Assembly: GCA_050485705.1 (NCBI GenBank)
Contig: JBJHBV010000002.1
Span: 1-44,396, forward strand
Direction: 5' to 3'
Source of the DNA: Candidatus Vogelbacteria bacterium
GTDB taxonomy: Bacteria > Patescibacteriota > Minisyncoccia > Phycocordibacterales > XYD1-FULL-46-19
DNA length: 44,396 nucleotides
The notes beneath the pieces were generated by a model. That model was not told where the DNA came from, ran no database searches, and saw only the letters and a program-made list of their open reading frames with translations. Position 1 is the stretch's first letter, and the number at the start of each line of letters is the position of its first letter. Shown piece by piece: positions 1,380 through 44,396 of this stretch. Made by a program: the position numbers and the translations under genes.

Positions 1380-2488
1380 TTAGATTGTTGAAAGATTTAC
1401 CCGAGTCTGAATTGGTTGGTAAAAGGGTTTTACTGCGAGCAGATTTCAATGTTCCGATTAAGAGCGACCAAGTGTCCGGTGATTATCGTCTGAGGCGTAG
1501 TTTACCGACTATTGAATTTCTGAGAGAAAGAGGTGCCAAAATTATAATCATGAGTCATTTGGGTGACAAGACAGCCAGTTTGTCGCCAGTAGTATCTTTT
1601 TTGTCTGAAATCCTGCCTGTCTCTTTGGTGACCTTTGATGAGATGATGAAGGGGAAAGATTTTGATAATGAAATTTTAGTTTTGGAAAATTTGCGTCAAC
1701 TGCCGGGAGAAGAAGCAAATGATGATAAGCTGGCTGGCCAAATTGCTTCTTGGGGTGATATCTATGTCAATGATGCTTTTTCTGCTTCTCATCGAAGTCA
1801 TGCCTCAATTGTCTCTCTGCCTAAATATTTGCCATCTTATGCCGGTTTATTGCTGGCTGACGAATATGAACATCTTAATAAGATATTAGAGCCAGAAAAA
1901 CCTTTAATCCTTATTTTAGGAGGGGCTAAATTTTCCACTAAATTACCTTTGGTTGAAAAGTATTTATCGGTGGCCGAACAGATATTTGTTGTCGGGGCTT
2001 TGGCTCATCCTCTTTTTTCGTTACAAGGATATGAAATAGGTAAGTCTTTGATGGATGATGAAGATATGAGACTCTCTACTTTAATTAATAATTCTAAAAT
2101 CGTGGTGCCGGAAGATGTGGTGGTGCAAGGGGAAGATGGTCAGGTTATAAAAACTTTGGCTGAAATAAAACCAGATGATATTATCTATGATGCCGGACCA
2201 CAGACAGTAGAGAAGATCTCATCTGTTTTACCGGGAGCTAAGACTATATTATGGAATGGACCCTTGGGTCACTTTGAAAATGGTTATGATCAGGCTACTA
2301 GGCAGATAGCCTTGGCGGTCGCTTCTTCCGAGGCCTATTCTGTGGTCGGAGGGGGGGATACCGTGAGTGCTATAGAGTCTTTAAATTTGGCTGATGATTT
2401 TGGTTTCGTGTCTACGGCTGGCGGAGCTATGCTTGAATATTTGGCTACCGGCACCTTGCCGGGACTTGAGGTTTTGATGACTGATTAA
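1376..2488 (+). CDS. pgk: phosphoglycerate kinase
   Basis: RADFNVP, MSHLG and GGGDT...STAGGAMLE motifs. Confidence 0.9.
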   Translation: MIRLLKDLPESELVGKRVLLRADFNVPIKSDQVSGDYRLRRSLPTIEFLRERGAKIIIMSHLGDKTASLSPVVSFLSEILPVSLVTFDEMMKGKDFDNEILVLENLRQLPGEEANDDKLAGQIASWGDIYVNDAFSASHRSHASIVSLPKYLPSYAGLLLADEYEHLNKILEPEKPLILILGGAKFSTKLPLVEKYLSVAEQIFVVGALAHPLFSLQGYEIGKSLMDDEDMRLSTLINNSKIVVPEDVVVQGEDGQVIKTLAEIKPDDIIYDAGPQTVEKISSVLPGAKTILWNGPLGHFENGYDQATRQIALAVASSEAYSVVGGGDTVSAIESLNLADDFGFVSTAGGAMLEYLATGTLPGLEVLMTD

Positions 2489-32327: not shown

Positions 32328-32780
32328 ATGTCTACTTTGGTTCAAAACAAAAAAGCAAGCTTTAACTACGAACTCCTGGATTCTTATGAGGCCGGCTTGG
32401 ATTTGCTTGGTTTTGAAGTTAAGGCCTTAAAGCTTGGACGGGGGTCTTTGGAGGGAGCTTATGTCGTTATCAGGGGTGGTGAGGCTTTTCTGGTGGGAGC
32501 CAATATCCCACCTTATCAAGCCGGAAATACCCCTGCGGGCTATGACCCTTTGCGTCCTCGTCGGTTACTTCTGACCGGAAAAGAAATTAAGCTTTTGCTA
32601 GGTAAAGAGGCTGAAAAAGGGTTGACATTGGTGCCAATTTCGGTGTATAGTAAGGGAAAGTTGTTGAAGTTGAAGCTGGCTATTGCTCGAGGTAAGAAGA
32701 AATACGATAAAAGAGAAACTATCAAGAAGCGAGAAGCCAAGCGTGAGATGGATAGGACTTTGAAAAATAGAGTTAAATAG
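32328..32780 (+). CDS. smpB: SsrA-binding protein SmpB
   Basis: NKKASFNYELL...L.G.E.K sequence, adjacent to tmRNA. Confidence 0.95.
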   Translation: MSTLVQNKKASFNYELLDSYEAGLDLLGFEVKALKLGRGSLEGAYVVIRGGEAFLVGANIPPYQAGNTPAGYDPLRPRRLLLTGKEIKLLLGKEAEKGLTLVPISVYSKGKLLKLKLAIARGKKKYDKRETIKKREAKREMDRTLKNRVK

Positions 32781-32885: not shown

Positions 32886-33273
32886 GGGGATGATCGGCCT
32901 AGACAGTTGATCATACTTTTTATGTGCATACCGAGGGTCCGAAAAACCTCGCTAATCTCTTTCGGAGCACCATAAGTGCAAACGAAAATCAGGGGGCCGT
33001 TGTGTCTCCGTTTTCTCCAGCTTTCGCTTTAGCGTAAGGGCTGGCGTCTTACTTTTTGATTCTTGAGCGAAAAGATCAAGATGTCATACACTCAAGATAG
33101 GCAATAAGATAGTTTGGCCTTACTGCCGAAACAAACAAACTCGGTGACCGTGGATTTTTCTTGCTTATCACCACGGAAACTTAAATCATTCTTAGGGATG
33201 AAATAAACAAGATATGTATGTAGAGTCATAGGAAGTACTCATCTGCACGCGGGTTCGATTCCCGCCATCTCCA
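32886..33273 (+). ncRNA. ssrA: tmRNA
   Basis: 5' GGGGATG pairs with 3' CATCTCC, including a G3-U pair. T-arm is GCGGG-TTCGATT-CCCGC. Tag reading frame 32978-33037 encodes ANENQGAVVSPFSPAFALA then stop. CCA is not encoded. Confidence 0.9.
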
Positions 33274-33275
33274 CT
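33256..33275 (+). repeat. direct repeat copy 1 (tmRNA 3' end)
   Basis: CGATTCCCGCCATCTCCACT, identical to 33467-33486. Confidence 0.9.
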
Positions 33276-33466
33276 TGTTAAAACATTAGCGCCCTTTTTT
33301 GGGCGCTTTTGTTTTTTAAGTGGAGATGGAGCAAAACAACTACTTGTTTTGCGTCGGTAATCGAAGCCACGCAGTATATCCTGAGCCTAGCGAAGGATAC
33401 GAGTGGCCGTCCAGGAACCTTAGTATTTTGTGAATACTTGAAACAAAATACTTAGAATTCCGGGGA
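33276..33466 (+). mobile_element. 191-bp structured insert between duplicated ssrA 3' ends (integration scar or miniature element)
   Basis: Bounded by 20-nt perfect direct repeats. Contains an inverted copy of the repeat end (33318-33329) and hairpins at 33331-33352 and 33422-33452. Confidence 0.5.
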
Positions 33467-33486
33467 CGATTCCCGCCATCTCCACT
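33467..33486 (+). repeat. direct repeat copy 2
   Basis: Identical 20-mer, followed by a strong terminator. Confidence 0.9.
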
Positions 33487-33493
33487 CGACTAC

Positions 33494-33535
33494 ACAACAA
33501 AATACCACCTGTTTAGACAGGTGGTATTTTGTTGT
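33494..33535 (+). terminator. 18-bp perfect hairpin terminator
   Basis: ACAACAAAATACCACCTG-tttaga-CAGGTGGTATTTTGTTGT. Confidence 0.7.
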
Positions 33536-33604
33536 TTCGCTCGTGGCAAGCCACTCAAATGTCCATAAATTGCCAATAAAATTTTTAGCTATAGAATAAA
33601 ATAT

Positions 33605-35723: not shown

Positions 35724-38700
35724 ATGAAAAATCCTATTAAGAAAAAACCTGTTTTTGGAGGCGGAGGAGGAATGCTGGGACAGTTTGGAGGTCAGGTTGT
35801 TATGACCCTTTTGATTTTTATTGTTATTGTTGCTCTCTACGCTTCTATTATTGAACAAAGACAAGAAACAGAAGAAATCTCAATTTCTGCTCTGGCTTTT
35901 GATGTTTCTGAGGGGCTAGTTTCTAGTATCGTGGTTCGGGGTGATGAACTTACTGTGACTTATGTTGATGGAACAGAGAGGACTTCTAAAAAAGAGGCTG
36001 ATATTTCTTTGTCCGAAACTCTGAACTTATATGGAGTAGAGAGAGAAGCTCTGCAAGCTTTAGAGATAGAGATAAAAAGTCAAACCGGATTTGCTTTTTG
36101 GGCTTTAAATATTCTACCCTTTCTGATTCCTATTTTGTTTATCCTTATTTTCTTTTGGTTTATTTCTCGTCAGGTTAGAGGAGCTTCTATGCAAGCATTT
36201 TCTTTTGGTCAATCTAGAGCAAGGATTATTGATCCTAATGACAAAAATCAGAAAGTTACTTTTAAGGATGTAGCGGGAGTTAAAGAAGCTAAAGAGGAGC
36301 TTTTGGAAATTGTGGACTTTTTGCGTAACCCAAAGAAATTCTTGGAAATTGGAGCTCGTATTCCCAAGGGTGTTTTAATGATTGGTGGCCCCGGAACTGG
36401 AAAATGTATTGTTGGTGATTCTTTAGTTTTGACAAACAAGGGGGTGATGGAGATTAAAGACATTCCTACTTATTATGCCGTTGATGAAAAAGACAGAGTG
36501 TCTGGTGCGGTTTTGCCAGCTATAGACGTGGAACAATCAATTAATGTTTCAGTACCCGCTTCTCATTGGTATGATTTAGGTGAGCAAAAAACTCATCGTC
36601 TAACTTTGAAAAATGGTTTAGAGCTTGAAGGGACTCCGGAGCATCCGGTTTTGGTTATGGGTGATGATGGTCAGTTAAGGTTTAAACATCTATCTGAATT
36701 GACAATTGGTGATTCAGTGGCTGTTTCTTTTAATAATCAAGCTTTTGGTCGTCATAAAGGGGTTGATGTAAAAACAGCCTATATGATGGGTCTTTTAACT
36801 GGTGATGGTAATTTAAGTCATGCCAGTCGGGTTGGTTTTACCACTACTGATCGTGAATTAGAAACAGTCTTTACTTCTTTTGTTCAAACTTATGATGAGT
36901 CTTGTAAGGTTAGTCGTGCTTCTGATGGTATTACTCAAGTAGCTACTTCTTGGAAGATAAAGAAGCATTTATACGATAACGGAATGTCATACTTGTTATC
37001 TTATGACAAAGTTATTCCACCGGCTATTTTACAAGCACCAAAAGAGATTGTGGCCGGTTTTTTGAGAGGACTTTTTGATAGTGATGGTTCTTTTGAGCGT
37101 TATGTGGTTAGTTATTCCACTGTTAGTAAAAAACTGTCTGATCAGATGATGGTTTTGTTGTTGAATTTCGGCATTAAGCCCAAGAGAAGGATTAAAATGC
37201 CGGTTGGATATAGTCATCCTCGACCGGTTTACGAAATTATTATCAGCGGAGAATCTTTAGAAGTTTTCCGAAAAGAAATTGGTTTTGGCTTAGGAAGAAA
37301 GAAGGAAAGATTGGATAATTATCTGACTACTCACAAAATAGGTAACACTAATGTTGATGTTTTTCCTTATATCAGTAATTTGGTCTACGCTTGTTGGCAG
37401 GTGATGAGTCAATCTGGTAAGAGCCAAGAGACAATATCTAAGCTTGTCTACAAAGTAAAGACCAGACAAAGAATTTCCAGATCTTCTCTTGGTTTGTTTG
37501 TTAAGGCTTTTGAAGAGAGTGGTTGTCATCACCCTGATTTTGATTATTTGAAAAGATTATTAAATCTAAATCTTCTCTTTTCTCCGGTCGTTAAGAATGA
37601 AACCGGACAAGCCAGAGTCTATGATTTAACTTAACCCAAGATTCATTCTTTCATCTCTAACGGTATAGTTTCTCACAACACTCTTTTGGCTCGCGCGGTA
37701 GCCGGGGAAGCCCATGTTCCTTTCTTTTATTTATCCGGCTCAGAGTTTGTGGAAATGTTTGTGGGGGTGGGTGCTTCACGAGTGAGAGATTTATTTAAGA
37801 TGGCGAAAAAGGCTGCTCCAGCCATTATCTTCATTGATGAAATAGATGCTATTGGCCGTCATCGCGGATCCGGTATGGGTGGAGGAAATGATGAACGTGA
37901 ACAGACTCTTAATCAGATATTGGTGGAGATGGATGGTTTTGAACCTAATGAAAAATTAATTGTAATGGCTGCCACCAACAGACCAGATGTCTTGGATCCG
38001 GCTCTTTTGCGTCCCGGGCGTTTTGATCGTCGGGTCGTGTTGGATCAACCTGATATTAAAGACCGAGAAGAAATTTTAAATATTCATGCTCGCAAGAAAC
38101 CTTTGACTGAAGAAGTAGATTTGCGAGTAATTGCAGAACGAACCCCCGGTTTTTCCGGAGCAGATTTGGCTAATGTGATGAACGAAGCTGCTATTTTGGC
38201 TGCCAGAGAAAACAGGAAAAAAGTTAGTCAATATGATTTTATTCGTTCTGTAGAAAAAGTAATGTTAGGTCCGGAAAGAAAGAGCCATATCTTATCAGCC
38301 CATGAGAAAAAAATTACCGCTTATCATGAAATAGGTCATGCCTTGGTTGCTTCTGTCTTGCCGGATTGTGATCCAATTCACAAGGTGTCCATTATTTCTC
38401 GTGGTCATGCTGCCGGTTATACTTTGAAATTGCCATTTGAAGACAGAAAACTTAACTCTCGTAAAGAATTTTTAGATGATATTGCTATGTCTTTAGGAGG
38501 GTATGCTACCGAGAAAATGATTTTTGGTGATATTACTACCGGTGCTTCCAATGATATTTCTGTTTCTACTCGTTTGGCCAGATCAATGGTCACTCGTTAT
38601 GGCATGAGCGATAAGGTGGGGCCGGTAGCCTATGATGTGTCTGAAGGCAAGTTTATGCCTGTTCCTGAAAATAGACCCAGTGCGTCAGAAGCTATGCAAT

Positions 38701-38933
38701 CTTTGATTGATCAAGAAGTAGCCAATATTATGAGCGAGGCTCTTAGGCGAGCTAATGAAGTTTTGGTTAAACACCGCAAAGCTTTAGAGGAGATGTCGGC
38801 TGAATTGATGAAAGTGGAAACATTAGAAAGAGAAGATTTTGAAAAGTTACTCATTCTTCATGGTATTAAACCAAAACAAAGACAAGAAAATTCATCTCAA
38901 CCAACCTTAGGGATTGATGAAGAAGAAAAATAA
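35724..38933 (+). CDS. ftsH: ATP-dependent zinc metalloprotease FtsH, interrupted by an intein (exteins 35724-36404 and 37680-38933)
   Basis: GGPGTGK at 36384-36404 joins [11 protein letters not shown] at 37680 to rebuild the Walker A loop. Downstream are DEIDA, the second region of homology, and HEIGHA zinc site. Confidence 0.9.
36405..37679 (+). mobile_element. intein with two-motif LAGLIDADG homing endonuclease domain and an in-frame TAA at 37632-37634
   Basis: Begins CIVGDSLV and ends NGIVSHN, followed by Thr+1. LAGLIDADG motifs are MGLLTGDGN and [10 protein letters not shown]. Confidence 0.85.
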
Positions 38934-39723: not shown

Positions 39724-40392
39724 ATGGCCAGAAAAGAGGACAAACAAAAAGCCTTAGAGCTTCGTAAAAAAGGATATAGTTATTCTCAAATTAAAGAAAA
39801 GCTTGGTTTGAGTAAAAGTACGCTGTCTGGCTGGCTTTCTGATTATCCTTTATCTGCTAAAAGAATACAGATGTTGCGTGATAAAAACCCTAGAAGGATA
39901 GAAAAATTTCGCAATACTATGAAAAAAAAGAAAGATGAGCGCTTAGAAAAAGTTTATGATAAAGTAGGAAAAGATATCGGGGTTTTCAGTAAAAAAGATA
40001 TTTTTGTAGCTGGCTGGTTTCTTTATTGGGGAGAGGGTTTAAAGACTTCTTCACCCACTTTTGGTTTGTCTAATACTGATCCAAATATGATTAGATTTTT
40101 CTTGAGATGGGTTGAGATTCTTGGAGTGCCGAAAGAAAAAGTGACAATAACTCTGCATTTATATTCAGATATGGATATAAATAAAGAAATTTATTTTTGG
40201 TCAAAAGAATTGTCTTTGCCTAAAAGTTGTTTCCGTAAGCCAGTTATAAAGAAGACCAAACTATCAGGTCTGACTTATAAGAATGGTTTTGGACATGGTA
40301 CTTGTCATGTGCGTATTTACAACCGTGATTGGGCGGAGTATATTCTAAAGGGTTTACAATATATCAGAGAAGTCGAAAGCAAGCGCCTATAG
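39724..40392 (+). CDS. HTH-domain protein with LAGLIDADG-like C-terminal region
   Basis: N-terminal KKGYSYSQIKEKLGLSKSTLSGWL helix-turn-helix. AGWFLYWGEG resembles a single LAGLIDADG motif. Confidence 0.55.
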   Translation: MARKEDKQKALELRKKGYSYSQIKEKLGLSKSTLSGWLSDYPLSAKRIQMLRDKNPRRIEKFRNTMKKKKDERLEKVYDKVGKDIGVFSKKDIFVAGWFLYWGEGLKTSSPTFGLSNTDPNMIRFFLRWVEILGVPKEKVTITLHLYSDMDINKEIYFWSKELSLPKSCFRKPVIKKTKLSGLTYKNGFGHGTCHVRIYNRDWAEYILKGLQYIREVESKRL

Positions 40393-40457
40393 CTCAATTG
40401 GTAGAGCACCCAGCTTATACCTGGGAGGTTTTCCTGGTTCGAGTCCAGGTGGGCGCA
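40383..40457 (+). tRNA. tRNA with anticodon UAU (Ile, reads AUA)
   Basis: Acceptor GCGCCTA/TGGGCGC. D-arm GCTC-AATTGGTA-GAGC. Anticodon arm CCCAG-CTTATAC-CTGGG. T-arm CCTGG-TTCGAGT-CCAGG. Seven-nt variable loop. CCA not encoded. Confidence 0.8.
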
Positions 40458-40462
40458 CTAGA

Positions 40463-42851: not shown

Positions 42852-42938
42852 TGCGGAGAGGGAGGGATTCAAACTTTGTACCTCAAGCCTTGTAAGGGTA
42901 TTCTAGCAGATTTTCAGATTGGTTTTCGATGTCTCCGC
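42852..42938 (-). other. tRNA-like element: 7-bp acceptor-like closing stem and tRNA 3'-end-like tail, but no cloverleaf
   Basis: Minus strand: GCGGAGA...GTTTGAATCCCTCCCTCTCCGC-A. D, anticodon and T stems cannot be drawn. Confidence 0.4.
42853..42869. repeat. direct repeat R1 (tRNA 3'-end-like)
   Basis: GCGGAGAGGGAGGGATT matches 43870-43886 at 16 of 17 positions. Confidence 0.8.
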
Positions 42939-43097
42939 ATAGGTCTTACTTTTTCGTCAAATACCAACAAATACCAATTTTTTGGGTATCAAATGCGACA
43001 ATACTACAAATGAGACACAAAACAGGGATATTTGGGAGTGTCTCATTTACGTCTCATAATATCAATATTAGTTGCTTTTTAGTTCTAATATCCAACC

Positions 43098-43703
43098 TTA
43101 AGCTACCACTAGATTGATAAATTGTTCTCGTGTCTCAGGTGTTTTCTCGTAGTGCATTGGTATTACCTTCGCAATCTTTTTGAATTTTTTAGTAAATTCA
43201 AATGCTTCTTGCGGACCAAATGTATAAAATGTTCCAACTGGCAATAGCGCAACATCTACTTCGAGGTTTGAAACATCAATACCAGATTCGTAGAACATAT
43301 CGCCTGCAAAATAGATTGTTTGATCCTCTGCTGTGATCAGGAAGCCAAAATTTTCCTGAAGGGGTGCAGATACATTTGGACCGTGGTCCACATTGAAAAA
43401 TTGCACCGTAATATCTTCGATAGCTACTGTATCGCCAACTTTTACTCGAGTGATATCAGTGGCAAGATTTTCTTCACCAAGGGTTTCAATGCACTCCTGA
43501 TTCAAATAGAGTTTTTTAGGTGAGAGCGCCTTGATCTGTTCAAGGGAGAAGTGGTCGCCGTGGATGTGTGATACGAGCATTGCATCTACAGTAACCCCTC
43601 GAAGCTTTTCAACTGGAGTTTTATTGCCAATATCAAAAGCCAAAAGAAAACCCTTGCTAGTTTCCAAAACAAAGCCTGATTGCTCAAATTTAGTGAGTCT
43701 CAT
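43098..43703 (-). CDS. small MBL-fold metal-dependent hydrolase
   Basis: SHIHGDHF motif, about 200 aa. Confidence 0.8.
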   Translation of the reverse strand: MRLTKFEQSGFVLETSKGFLLAFDIGNKTPVEKLRGVTVDAMLVSHIHGDHFSLEQIKALSPKKLYLNQECIETLGEENLATDITRVKVGDTVAIEDITVQFFNVDHGPNVSAPLQENFGFLITAEDQTIYFAGDMFYESGIDVSNLEVDVALLPVGTFYTFGPQEAFEFTKKFKKIAKVIPMHYEKTPETREQFINLVVA

Positions 43704-43867
43704 AAACTTATTTTAACAAAAAATCAAGCTTAAATAAAGGATTTTCAGAGCGATAGTTACCAACACTTCAGGCTCCCGAGACTTTCTAGACTCCTTGGAC
43801 GATCTGCGTCATTCCTTGTGTATATCAGCTAATAAAAAAGGAATACATATGCAACTACTTAGTTCTC

Positions 43868-43948
43868 TTGGCGGAGAGGGAGAGATTAGGGTCAGCTCAC
43901 CTCAATATTTTAGTTCGCTTCTCTCTTAAAATATTGGGTGGCTCCCTC
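43868..43948 (-). other. tRNA-like element ending in an encoded CCA, with a long central hairpin in place of a cloverleaf
   Basis: Minus strand: GGAGGGA...CAATATTTTA-loop-TAAAATATTG...TAATCTCTCCCTCTCC-G-CCA. Confidence 0.4.
43870..43886. repeat. direct repeat R2
   Basis: GCGGAGAGGGAGAGATT. Confidence 0.8.
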
Positions 43949-44396
43949 CTTACAGGAGCTGTACACCTTTTGGATATTTTCATTACATAAAAATATCTCA
44001 AAAGGTCTTGCAAAGCTCCAAGTATTCGCTTCTCACCCGGGCTCGTCAGTAACAAATTTTTTACAAAAATTTATCTGACTCCGCCTTTCGAATCCCACCC
44101 TCACCATCTTAGCTGTCAATTTTAATACAGCTCCAAGTATTCGCTATATTAAAATAGCCAGTGCGGTGAAATTATATCCTTTGCGCGAACCCATTTTGAA
44201 TAAAACACCTGACGCGCCTCGGGCGCGGAGCGTTAGCGGAGCGCGCCCGAGGCGCGGTCATCCAATTTCCTTTCGGAAGCGGAAGTTACATTTGGCGGAG
44301 AAGTTATGACCGTTGCTCGAACTTTCTTTGACCAATCGCGAAGCGATTGAATCAACCAACAACGCGCGGAGCGCGTGGTGACTTTGTACTTTTGCG
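43949..44396. other. ORF-free, hairpin-dense segment with GC-rich stems (candidate large structured RNA or mobile-element end), truncated by the window edge
   Basis: No ORF of 60 aa or more in any frame from 43717 onward. The 14-bp perfect stem 44213-44226/44241-44254, the GAA and GGA triloop hairpins at 44332-44348 and 44361-44375, the 17-nt direct repeats at 44013 and 44128, and the tRNA 3'-like end at 44086-44105 all lie inside this span. Confidence 0.45.

Follow-up and report, generated by a model that had tools for sequence, protein, structure and literature searches.

A 211-bp insert directly behind the transfer-messenger RNA (tmRNA) gene ssrA of a Candidatus Vogelbacteria bacterium is probably one copy of a gene-less, dispensable and structured family of elements that occupy tRNA and tmRNA genes (together, t(m)RNA genes) at their 3' ends and are built like the tRNA-linked repeats (TLRs) of Escherichia coli. 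The insert lies in a stretch of 44,396 nt (the window; GCA_050485705.1, contig JBJHBV010000002.1, positions 1 to 44,396 of the forward strand) from a 589-kb genome (G000) that is 99% complete and is a draft in 61 contigs. A sequence-only reading of this stretch had noticed a repeated tmRNA 3' end and offered three origins for the DNA between the copies: the deletion scar of an island, a miniature non-autonomous integrative element, or an expressed tRNA-like RNA that reuses the tmRNA acceptor end. Members of the family described here are non-coding, 85-200 nt long, and located just 3' of tRNA and tmRNA genes.

An apparent insertion at the 3' end of an intact ssrA gene

ARAGORN recovered a one-piece tmRNA with the tag peptide ANENQGAVVSPFSPAFALA, and this, together with the Rfam match (Table 1), bears out the earlier description of the gene as intact. 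Its 3' end is duplicated as the 20-mer CGATTCCCGCCATCTCCACT, with 20/20 identity between the two copies; no further match with up to 3 mismatches was found and the chance expectation was 0 (100 shuffles), so the perfect direct repeat that had been reported stands. The insert bounded by this repeat measures 211 bp (33276-33486, or equivalently 33256-33466), begins 1 nt past the tmRNA end and contains no open reading frame (ORF). The repeat starts at T-loop C56 and regenerates the gene, a trait of integrase attachment (att) sites.

The ssrA loci of relatives were compared for empty and filled sites. In one relative of the same family (G030), the site is empty and the tmRNA end is directly joined to an 18-bp hairpin terminator; its orthologue of 33487-33560 has the same hairpin and the same CGCTCGTGGCAAGCCAC, at ~90% identity. 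Because G030 carries this hairpin straight after its tmRNA end, the hairpin at 33494-33535 is the original ssrA terminator, as had been suspected. Aligned to the empty site, repeat copy 2 and its downstream flank are ancestral sequence. Copy 2 is thus the displaced original tmRNA end or, equally, a right-hand homology arm. Related inserts are present at at least 9 of the ~20 ssrA loci read (window included) and ~10 are empty; the filled loci besides the window are those of G003, G053, G037 (two units), G014, G008, G022, G058 (three units) and G036. Within one genus, ssrA loci vary in both the presence and the type of element. At the level of sequence, these comparisons show the window copy as a clean insertion relative to the G030 allele, with the tmRNA left intact.

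The draft state of the assembly raises the question of a false join or false duplication through the 20-nt repeat, as the genome is in 61 contigs and several of these end inside elements. The same ordered architecture nevertheless recurs behind tmRNA elsewhere and, in >100 assemblies, some of them closed chromosomes, behind tRNAs, and the interior of the insert is unique in its genome. We therefore give an assembly artefact a negligible probability.

Two other explanations of the locus were rejected. For a two-piece (permuted) tmRNA, RF04321 scored 28 bits against a threshold of 47, a match explained by the T-arm together with the inverted arm, and a one-piece gene is present. For a group I intron in the tmRNA T-loop, RF00028 gave no match at E values up to 10, the repeat offers no register with a U/G boundary, and the upstream tmRNA is intact.

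Table 1. Features of the ssrA locus and of the element behind it, in window coordinates.
Feature	Position	Strand	Basis or description
smpB, directly upstream of ssrA	32328-32780		Pfam SmpB
ssrA, intact one-piece tmRNA	32886-33276 (end 33274/33276)	+	ARAGORN; Rfam RF00023, 132 bits
Direct repeat copy 1	33256-33275	+	T-loop C56 through T-stem 3' strand, acceptor 3' strand and discriminator to +1; working tmRNA 3' end
Spacer module S with first terminator-like hairpin and T-run	33276-33317	+	Terminator scan; S compared in G003, G022, G030
First terminator hairpin, then T-run	33288-33307	+	Terminator scan
Anti-acceptor arm AAGTGGAGATGG	33318-33329	+	Reverse complement of CCATCTCCACTT, i.e. acceptor 3' strand plus first 2 nt of S
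Hairpin hpA, 9-bp stem GCAAAACAA/TTGTTTTGC, 4-nt loop CTAC	33331-33352	+	Geometry common to ~30/69 family copies
Anti-T arm CGGTAATCG, 5' strand of P1, then conserved junction GAAG	33355-33363	+	Alignment to R1
Three-way-junction core	33364-33466	+	P2 ~33366-33407, P3 ~33408-33467; R1 match, folds, family covariation
Direct repeat copy 2	33467-33486	+	3' strand of P1 plus copy of acceptor 3' strand
Original ssrA terminator hairpin, 18 bp	33494-33535	+	G030 orthologue directly after tmRNA end, ~90% identity

The tmRNA-linked copy folds into an acceptor/T-stem-like stack

The region 33276-33545 folds at -121 kcal/mol (z = -11.9 versus shuffles), and the element within it is bracketed by two terminators (Table 1). 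The terminator that had been noticed after repeat copy 1 was recovered by a terminator scan, together with its T-run. The inverted copy AAGTGGAGATGG is present as described, but it lies 43 nt into the insert rather than at its start. Its predicted pairing with repeat copy 2 was confirmed as an 11-bp helix in the minimum-energy fold; as an alternative, this anti-acceptor arm can pair with copy 1 across the spacer (-43 to -58.7 kcal/mol). The spacer sequence itself is kept in copies behind tmRNA, tRNA-Ile and tRNA-Val of other genera.

Downstream of the anti-acceptor arm, hpA occupies the position where a tRNA body would leave the acceptor/T-stem stack, and it borders on GT and the core. The anti-T arm that follows is antisense to CGATTCCCG of the repeat, with 8/9 pairs of the closing helix P1 formed, and runs into a junction that reads CGGTAATCG-AAG. 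The "residual T-loop" of the sequence-only reading (CGGG-GACGATT-CCCG) does exist as a local alternative fold; it is peculiar to the window copy, whereas in the family CGATTCCCG pairs with an antisense arm further upstream, which lies at 33355-33363 in this copy. In the family fold the window copy reaches -67.7 kcal/mol versus a minimum of -70.1 kcal/mol, a gap within 2.4 kcal/mol. The two strong internal hairpins of the insert correspond to the core arms P2 and P3. A covariance model of the element core built in this analysis (R1) matches the window copy at 33353-33476 with 68.9 bits (E 1.6e-14), a score to be read with the caveat that this copy is among the 16 seed sequences and that its P2 and P3 helices are shifted from the consensus. 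Collectively, these folds show that the arms and the direct copy pair into a stack like the acceptor/T-stem of a tRNA, with the core in the place of the T-loop.

One core is found behind many t(m)RNA genes

A BLAST search for a second copy of the 191-bp interior in the same genome returned none, and family members became visible only through profile and model building. They share one plan. From 5' to 3', a spacer, often containing a hairpin, is followed by a variable arm antisense to the acceptor 3' strand, by the optional hpA (a 9-bp hairpin with a 4-nt loop), and by an arm antisense to the T-stem 3' strand and T-loop. After a junction of the form (U/G)(C/A)GAA(A)G come two conserved hairpin arms and, last, a direct copy of the gene from T-loop position 56 to the discriminator, extended by CCA where this is gene-encoded.

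Thirteen of the 37 t(m)RNA genes in the window's genome have a copy of their own 3' end 143-200 nt downstream. R1 finds 16 copies there, all on the same strand as, and just 3' of, the adjacent gene, with one orphan excepted. The orphan (G000:C6:16984-17089, +) retains hpA and the complete core, but its 3' repeat is decayed and it is not preceded by a tRNA gene. In full-sensitivity R1 searches, 29 of 40 relatives carry the element at 0-18 copies per genome, and complete genomes without any copy exist. A same-strand t(m)RNA gene lies within 700 nt upstream of 57/70 R1 matches, mostly at a distance of 19-91 nt, and no full-length copy with cargo was seen among ~70 copies.

A thinner, phylum-wide sample searched with stricter filters gave 34 positive genomes out of 401, and the matches lay nearly always right after a tRNA gene. 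A strict 24-base core pattern was found in at least 120 species genomes, mostly Patescibacteria and including many Saccharibacteria; the same pattern had 0 matches in 2.9 million viral contigs. Among the matches listed, four are metagenome-assembled genomes (MAGs) of Elusimicrobia (L082, L135, L142 and L158), and these copies are genuine, having the same core, hpA and arm layout after tRNA-Arg genes. Because core, hpA and arms also trail tRNA-Arg in these four genomes, the family crosses phylum borders.

Covariation and strand asymmetry suggest selection on an RNA-type fold

Compensatory changes were present at 20 of 24 predicted pairs in an alignment of 16 sequences. Across 72 model-aligned copies (alignment A2), which were fitted to the model so that pairing is somewhat inflated, 93.9% of cells were paired compared to 63% after shuffling and 30-46% when partners were slid, and 466 double-change cells were observed versus 137. 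None of 500 shuffles reached the observed number of paired cells, double-change cells or covariation score. In the core helices P2-P3, G-U combinations outnumbered A-C by 36 to 8. The hpA stems (~30/69 copies) differ in sequence in every copy and are always pairable, with only G-U besides Watson-Crick pairs.

These patterns show selection for the fold on the tRNA-sense strand. Covariation, the G-U excess and the hpA stems therefore point to an element that would act as RNA, or as a single strand of tRNA-sense polarity, rather than as duplex att arms. In this respect, the tRNA-like RNA of the sequence-only reading came close: the RNA-like fold does reuse the tmRNA acceptor end.

No Rfam family matches the element, the curated thresholds giving tRNA and tmRNA only, and relaxed thresholds produced no RtT, ribozyme, group I or other credible match. 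Inspection of the junctions by eye gave no convincing hammerhead or kink-turn.

Arms follow the adjacent gene while cores recombine

The direct copy equals the last 16 nt of its own gene at 16/16 positions in 39 of 57 copies, compared to a mean of 8.9 against other tRNAs. The spacer and hpA of the window type recur in other genera behind tRNA-Ile(UAU), tRNA-Val and tRNA-Leu, with both antisense arms rewritten for each gene. The antisense arms often contain 1-2 mismatches; the direct copy is perfect. At 40383-40458 (+) of the window, a tRNA-Ile gene with an encoded UAU anticodon lacks a trailing element; the same isoacceptor in a relative (G022, L010) does carry an element of the window's tmRNA type.

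Cores behave differently from arms. In the window's genome, the copies behind tRNA-Gly and tRNA-Pro share a core stretch that is 100% identical, as do those behind tRNA-Lys and tRNA-Ser (90-125 nt), and spacer, hpA and arms differ within each of these pairs. The P2 and P3 modules have been recombined between copies. In a tree of 116 columns with weak resolution, cores cluster mostly by genome; the core linked to the window's tmRNA is an exception and falls in with tmRNA-linked copies from other genera. We read the resident copies as undergoing frequent gene conversion and recombination, combined with selection for arm pairing.

The same observations could come from RNAs that serve their host. 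In such a scenario, the elements would be long-resident, vertically inherited partner RNAs of single t(m)RNA genes, possibly acting as tRNA-top-half mimics that serve as decoys, as sensors or as processing/termination modules, with arms kept by selection, cores homogenised by gene conversion, and patchiness arising only by direct-repeat loss. Phylum-wide conservation of structure, invariant internal-loop residues and the strand-specific G-U excess are in keeping with this idea, as are arms that mimic the cognate acceptor/T-stem stack with hpA at the tRNA-body position. Copies are identical to one another in the core alone, which is the pattern expected from gene conversion, and the window's tmRNA-linked core is nearer to tmRNA-linked copies of other genera than to the 15 others of its own genome. 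In E. coli, the RNAs of the RrA/B/F TLRs are processed and bound by Hfq and CsrA (PMC8144298). However, sister genera whose genomes are near-complete differ in copy number, from 0 to 18, a single genus can have several element types at the same gene, and tandem arrays and truncated copies are common. One copy lies away from any tRNA (C6), Elusimicrobia share near-identical core motifs, and deletions of E. coli TLRs have only modest phenotypes (PMC8144298). The range in copy number, the differences in type, the orphan and the Elusimicrobia cores therefore give the family the look of a dispensable, horizontally moving element, and we consider a host-serving RNA unlikely.

Proposed movement without a dedicated integrase

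The sequence-only reading had pointed out that ssrA 3' ends are classic integrase targets and that no integrase is present. The latter holds: the 211 bp have no ORF, and the only tyrosine recombinase gene of the genome, a Xer-like PF00589 match, is on a contig other than that of the window. Most carrier genomes likewise have one PF00589 gene each. A reverse transcriptase (RVT_1) was found in 5 of 11 carrier genomes; the sole such gene of the window's genome (C4:8828-9454, -; 82.7 bits, 370-aa ORF) adjoins no element copy seen. An integrase and a reverse transcriptase were both rejected as the mover, given a single PF00589 gene, RVT_1 in 5/11 genomes, and the position of both away from elements.

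A classical integrative element would make the insert a scar or miniature of an integrase-borne island or prophage at the ssrA T-loop, of the att-only kind known from cis-mobilizable elements (CIMEs), with a tyrosine integrase acting in trans. Class-II tRNA/tmRNA att sites have an integration sublocation from the T-loop to the gene end, and the repeat in the window has the same extent. The insert also brings a replacement 3' end and terminator, relatives have tandem arrays, and in G030 the DNA behind ssrA holds another cassette, which includes a GIY-YIG ORF and part of a tmRNA end. Several findings speak against this: each gene has its own version of the arms, covariation of the RNA type and a G-U asymmetry would be unexpected for att arms, the strict core pattern is absent from the viral contigs, and no cargo-bearing full-length version was seen among the ~70 copies. 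The classic integrase-att account of ssrA fails because one core, essentially always cargo-free, sits behind 13 genes of a 589-kb genome that encodes a single tyrosine recombinase. Thirteen separate integrase specificities can be discounted, because the insert has no ORF and there is one such recombinase. We regard a classical integrative origin as highly improbable. An island scar specifically was not upheld, as the same core with rewritten arms recurs behind 13 t(m)RNA genes here and hundreds elsewhere, essentially never with cargo. The miniature non-autonomous element named in the same reading fared better: the ssrA 3' end does hold a genuine insertion, which brings no integrase and for which a relative has the empty site.

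For the TLR-like family that we favor, gain and loss would need no dedicated integrase. Ordinary homologous recombination could carry the element from one genome to the same gene of another, for instance when DNA has been taken up, because a conserved gene lies on its left and a copy of that gene's 3' end on its right. Recombination between the two repeats would remove the element precisely, and the same process could build tandem arrays, while gene conversion would shuffle and homogenise cores between the loci of one genome. At the RNA level, we infer by analogy read-through and processing of the element RNA, with the tmRNA 3'-end maturation machinery trimming it at each of the two repeats; the antisense arms may sequester the spare 3' end and so prevent mispairing with the tmRNA body.

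Several points weigh against this interpretation. The proposed model leaves unexplained how a new tRNA species would first be colonised and how both arms would come to match the new gene. Empty sites do not prove recent insertion, since precise deletion can also yield them, and identical cores behind different tRNAs fit core-only transposition equally well. Cross-phylum conservation of the core and its invariant purine-rich internal loops suggest an RNA function or a partner protein, and the alignment behind the pairing statistics carries the inflation noted above. The likeness to TLRs also has limits. Interiors are not alignable, and R1 reaches 11 bits on E. coli, through the closing helix P1 and the junction only. 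The Rfam model of the E. coli units (RF00391, RtT) scores 133-138 bits on E. coli; it gave no match on the window copy at E values up to 10 and none on seven other copies at E values up to 0.5. No inverted copy was found in the 5S-linked E. coli TLR.

Identical cores also raise the idea of a protein-less mobile element. Here the core, as RNA or single-stranded DNA, would find a T-loop and 3' end by its split arms, direct or catalyse insertion, and rewrite the arms, with the E. coli TLRs as decayed relatives. The core might be a ribozyme, or a guide or scaffold for an unrecognised enzyme, with insertion at the T-loop and arms re-templated at each move. The 100% identical cores (90-125 nt) behind different tRNAs with wholly different arms, the left repeat edge fixed in the T-loop, split antisense arms that resemble guides, and the failure to find a dedicated protein among PF00589 and RVT_1 profile matches in carrier genomes would all fit. 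However, arms with 1-2 mismatches beside a perfect direct copy fit selection better than templating, spacer and hpA do not accompany the identical cores, no ribozyme family matches even at relaxed thresholds, and gene conversion is a simpler account of the identical cores. We know of no biochemical precedent for a self-directed mobile RNA of this kind, which also counts against it. Both the protein-less element and its self-directed form seem very unlikely to us; if true, they would amount to RNA-addressed DNA mobility independent of known recombinases.

Other observations in the window and in relatives

The two genes 3' of the insert, for a 6-phosphogluconolactonase-like and a CofD/YvcK-like protein, are ordinary housekeeping genes outside the insertion boundaries. 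Further along, ftsH at 35724-38933 (+) is split by a LAGLIDADG intein and was read as two ORFs. Near the contig end, further family copies or remnants occur at 43880-44099 (-) and 42852-43948, with R1 scores of 48.6-52.5 and 33.6 bits. Copies of the tRNA-Ser 3' end surround these positions, and a gene for an MBL-fold hydrolase lies between two of the repeats, which is possibly a rare cargo-bearing arrangement.

Elsewhere in the genome, contigs C22 (about 200-215), C23, C32 and C58 end inside elements or tandem units, or have N runs there. The element family is probably one cause of the fragmented assembly.

In G030 (L005, G030:C11), another cassette follows beyond the terminator, 230-530 nt past the tmRNA, with a small GIY-YIG-like ORF (MIKNQSGKLYIGITENPNQRLSAHNTKRGASFTKY). 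This ORF has two in-frame stops, one of them where relatives have Trp, and part of the tmRNA 3' end (TCCGCCCATCTCCAC) is found again 514 nt downstream. In L035 (G446:C6), a probable group I intron at 1745-1962 (-), matched by RF00028 at 44.9 bits against a threshold of 50, lies inside a tRNA-like gene missed by ARAGORN, and two tandem element copies follow that gene.

Significance of the family

The family is uncatalogued and absent from Rfam, and a full-text literature search for a description of such elements in Patescibacteria returned nothing relevant. TLRs have reportedly been known in E. coli since 1978 and are said to have no accepted origin or function. A TLR-like design is now seen to be abundant in a distant branch, the ultra-small Patescibacteria, and also in Elusimicrobia. 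This gives a comparative handle on such elements through a strongly covarying core, gene-matched arms, clear polymorphism for presence and absence and, in 0.6-Mb genomes, as many as 18 copies. It bears on whether they hitchhike selfishly on highly conserved genes, serve as processing modules or mimic tRNAs. Some Saccharibacteria are cultivable and transformable, and the presence of the core in many Saccharibacteria MAGs offers a testable system. On the practical side, these elements break assemblies, and in annotation they mimic att scars and pseudo-tRNAs.

Comparison with known systems

Islands, prophages and CIMEs at tRNA and tmRNA T-loops share several traits with the family: the repeat starts in the T-loop, incoming DNA regenerates the 3' end, the original end and terminator are displaced downstream, and units accrete in tandem. 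They differ in that the window family has neither integrase nor cargo, uses one core on many genes, and has antisense arms and RNA-type covariation in a genome with a single tyrosine recombinase.

The resemblance to tRNA mimics, such as viral 3' tRNA-like structures, the tRNA-like domain of tmRNA and the bacterial, Y-RNA-like YrlA, lies in ends that pair as an acceptor/T-stem-like stack of cognate sequence, and in a hairpin where the tRNA body would emerge. Unlike these mimics, the window element has no T-loop, the core taking its place. Its helix extends past the discriminator into +1/+2, which leaves no encoded NCCA end free, and the G3-U70 alanine identity pair of tmRNA is A-U.

The E. coli TLRs comprise the RtT/RttR units of tyrT-tyrV and RrA/RrB/RrF behind 5S rRNA, reportedly described by Egan and Landy in 1978 and by Rudd in 1999. 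In both systems a non-coding unit directly follows a stable-RNA gene and shares its strand, ends in that gene's 3' end (18-19 nt in E. coli, 20 nt in the window) and is often tandem, and the dual-terminator layout of the window is also found in E. coli. Stenum et al. 2021 (PMC8144298) list 22 TLR units at ten loci, the last 18-19 bp of which are the 3' end of the upstream tRNA or 5S rRNA; the units have no known function, and the repeat was proposed as a processing signal. A further likeness, seen in tyrT/tyrV by this analysis and outside the published TLR definition, is an anti-T arm followed by a GAGAA/UCGAA junction. In tyrT/tyrV, GAGAAG comes after an inverted T-arm 3' half (GGGGAAGGAT), and each unit closes with the last 19 nt of the tRNA; many Patescibacteria copies have GGGAYGAGAAAG. 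The family described here differs from TLRs in its own conserved three-way-junction core, in an anti-acceptor arm that is often split, in hpA, and in its range, which takes in tmRNA, a third of the tRNA genes of a 0.6-Mb genome and other phyla. Homology of the core to TLRs is not detectable. The window element is laid out like a TLR and would work like one, and among known systems the E. coli TLRs are the closest.

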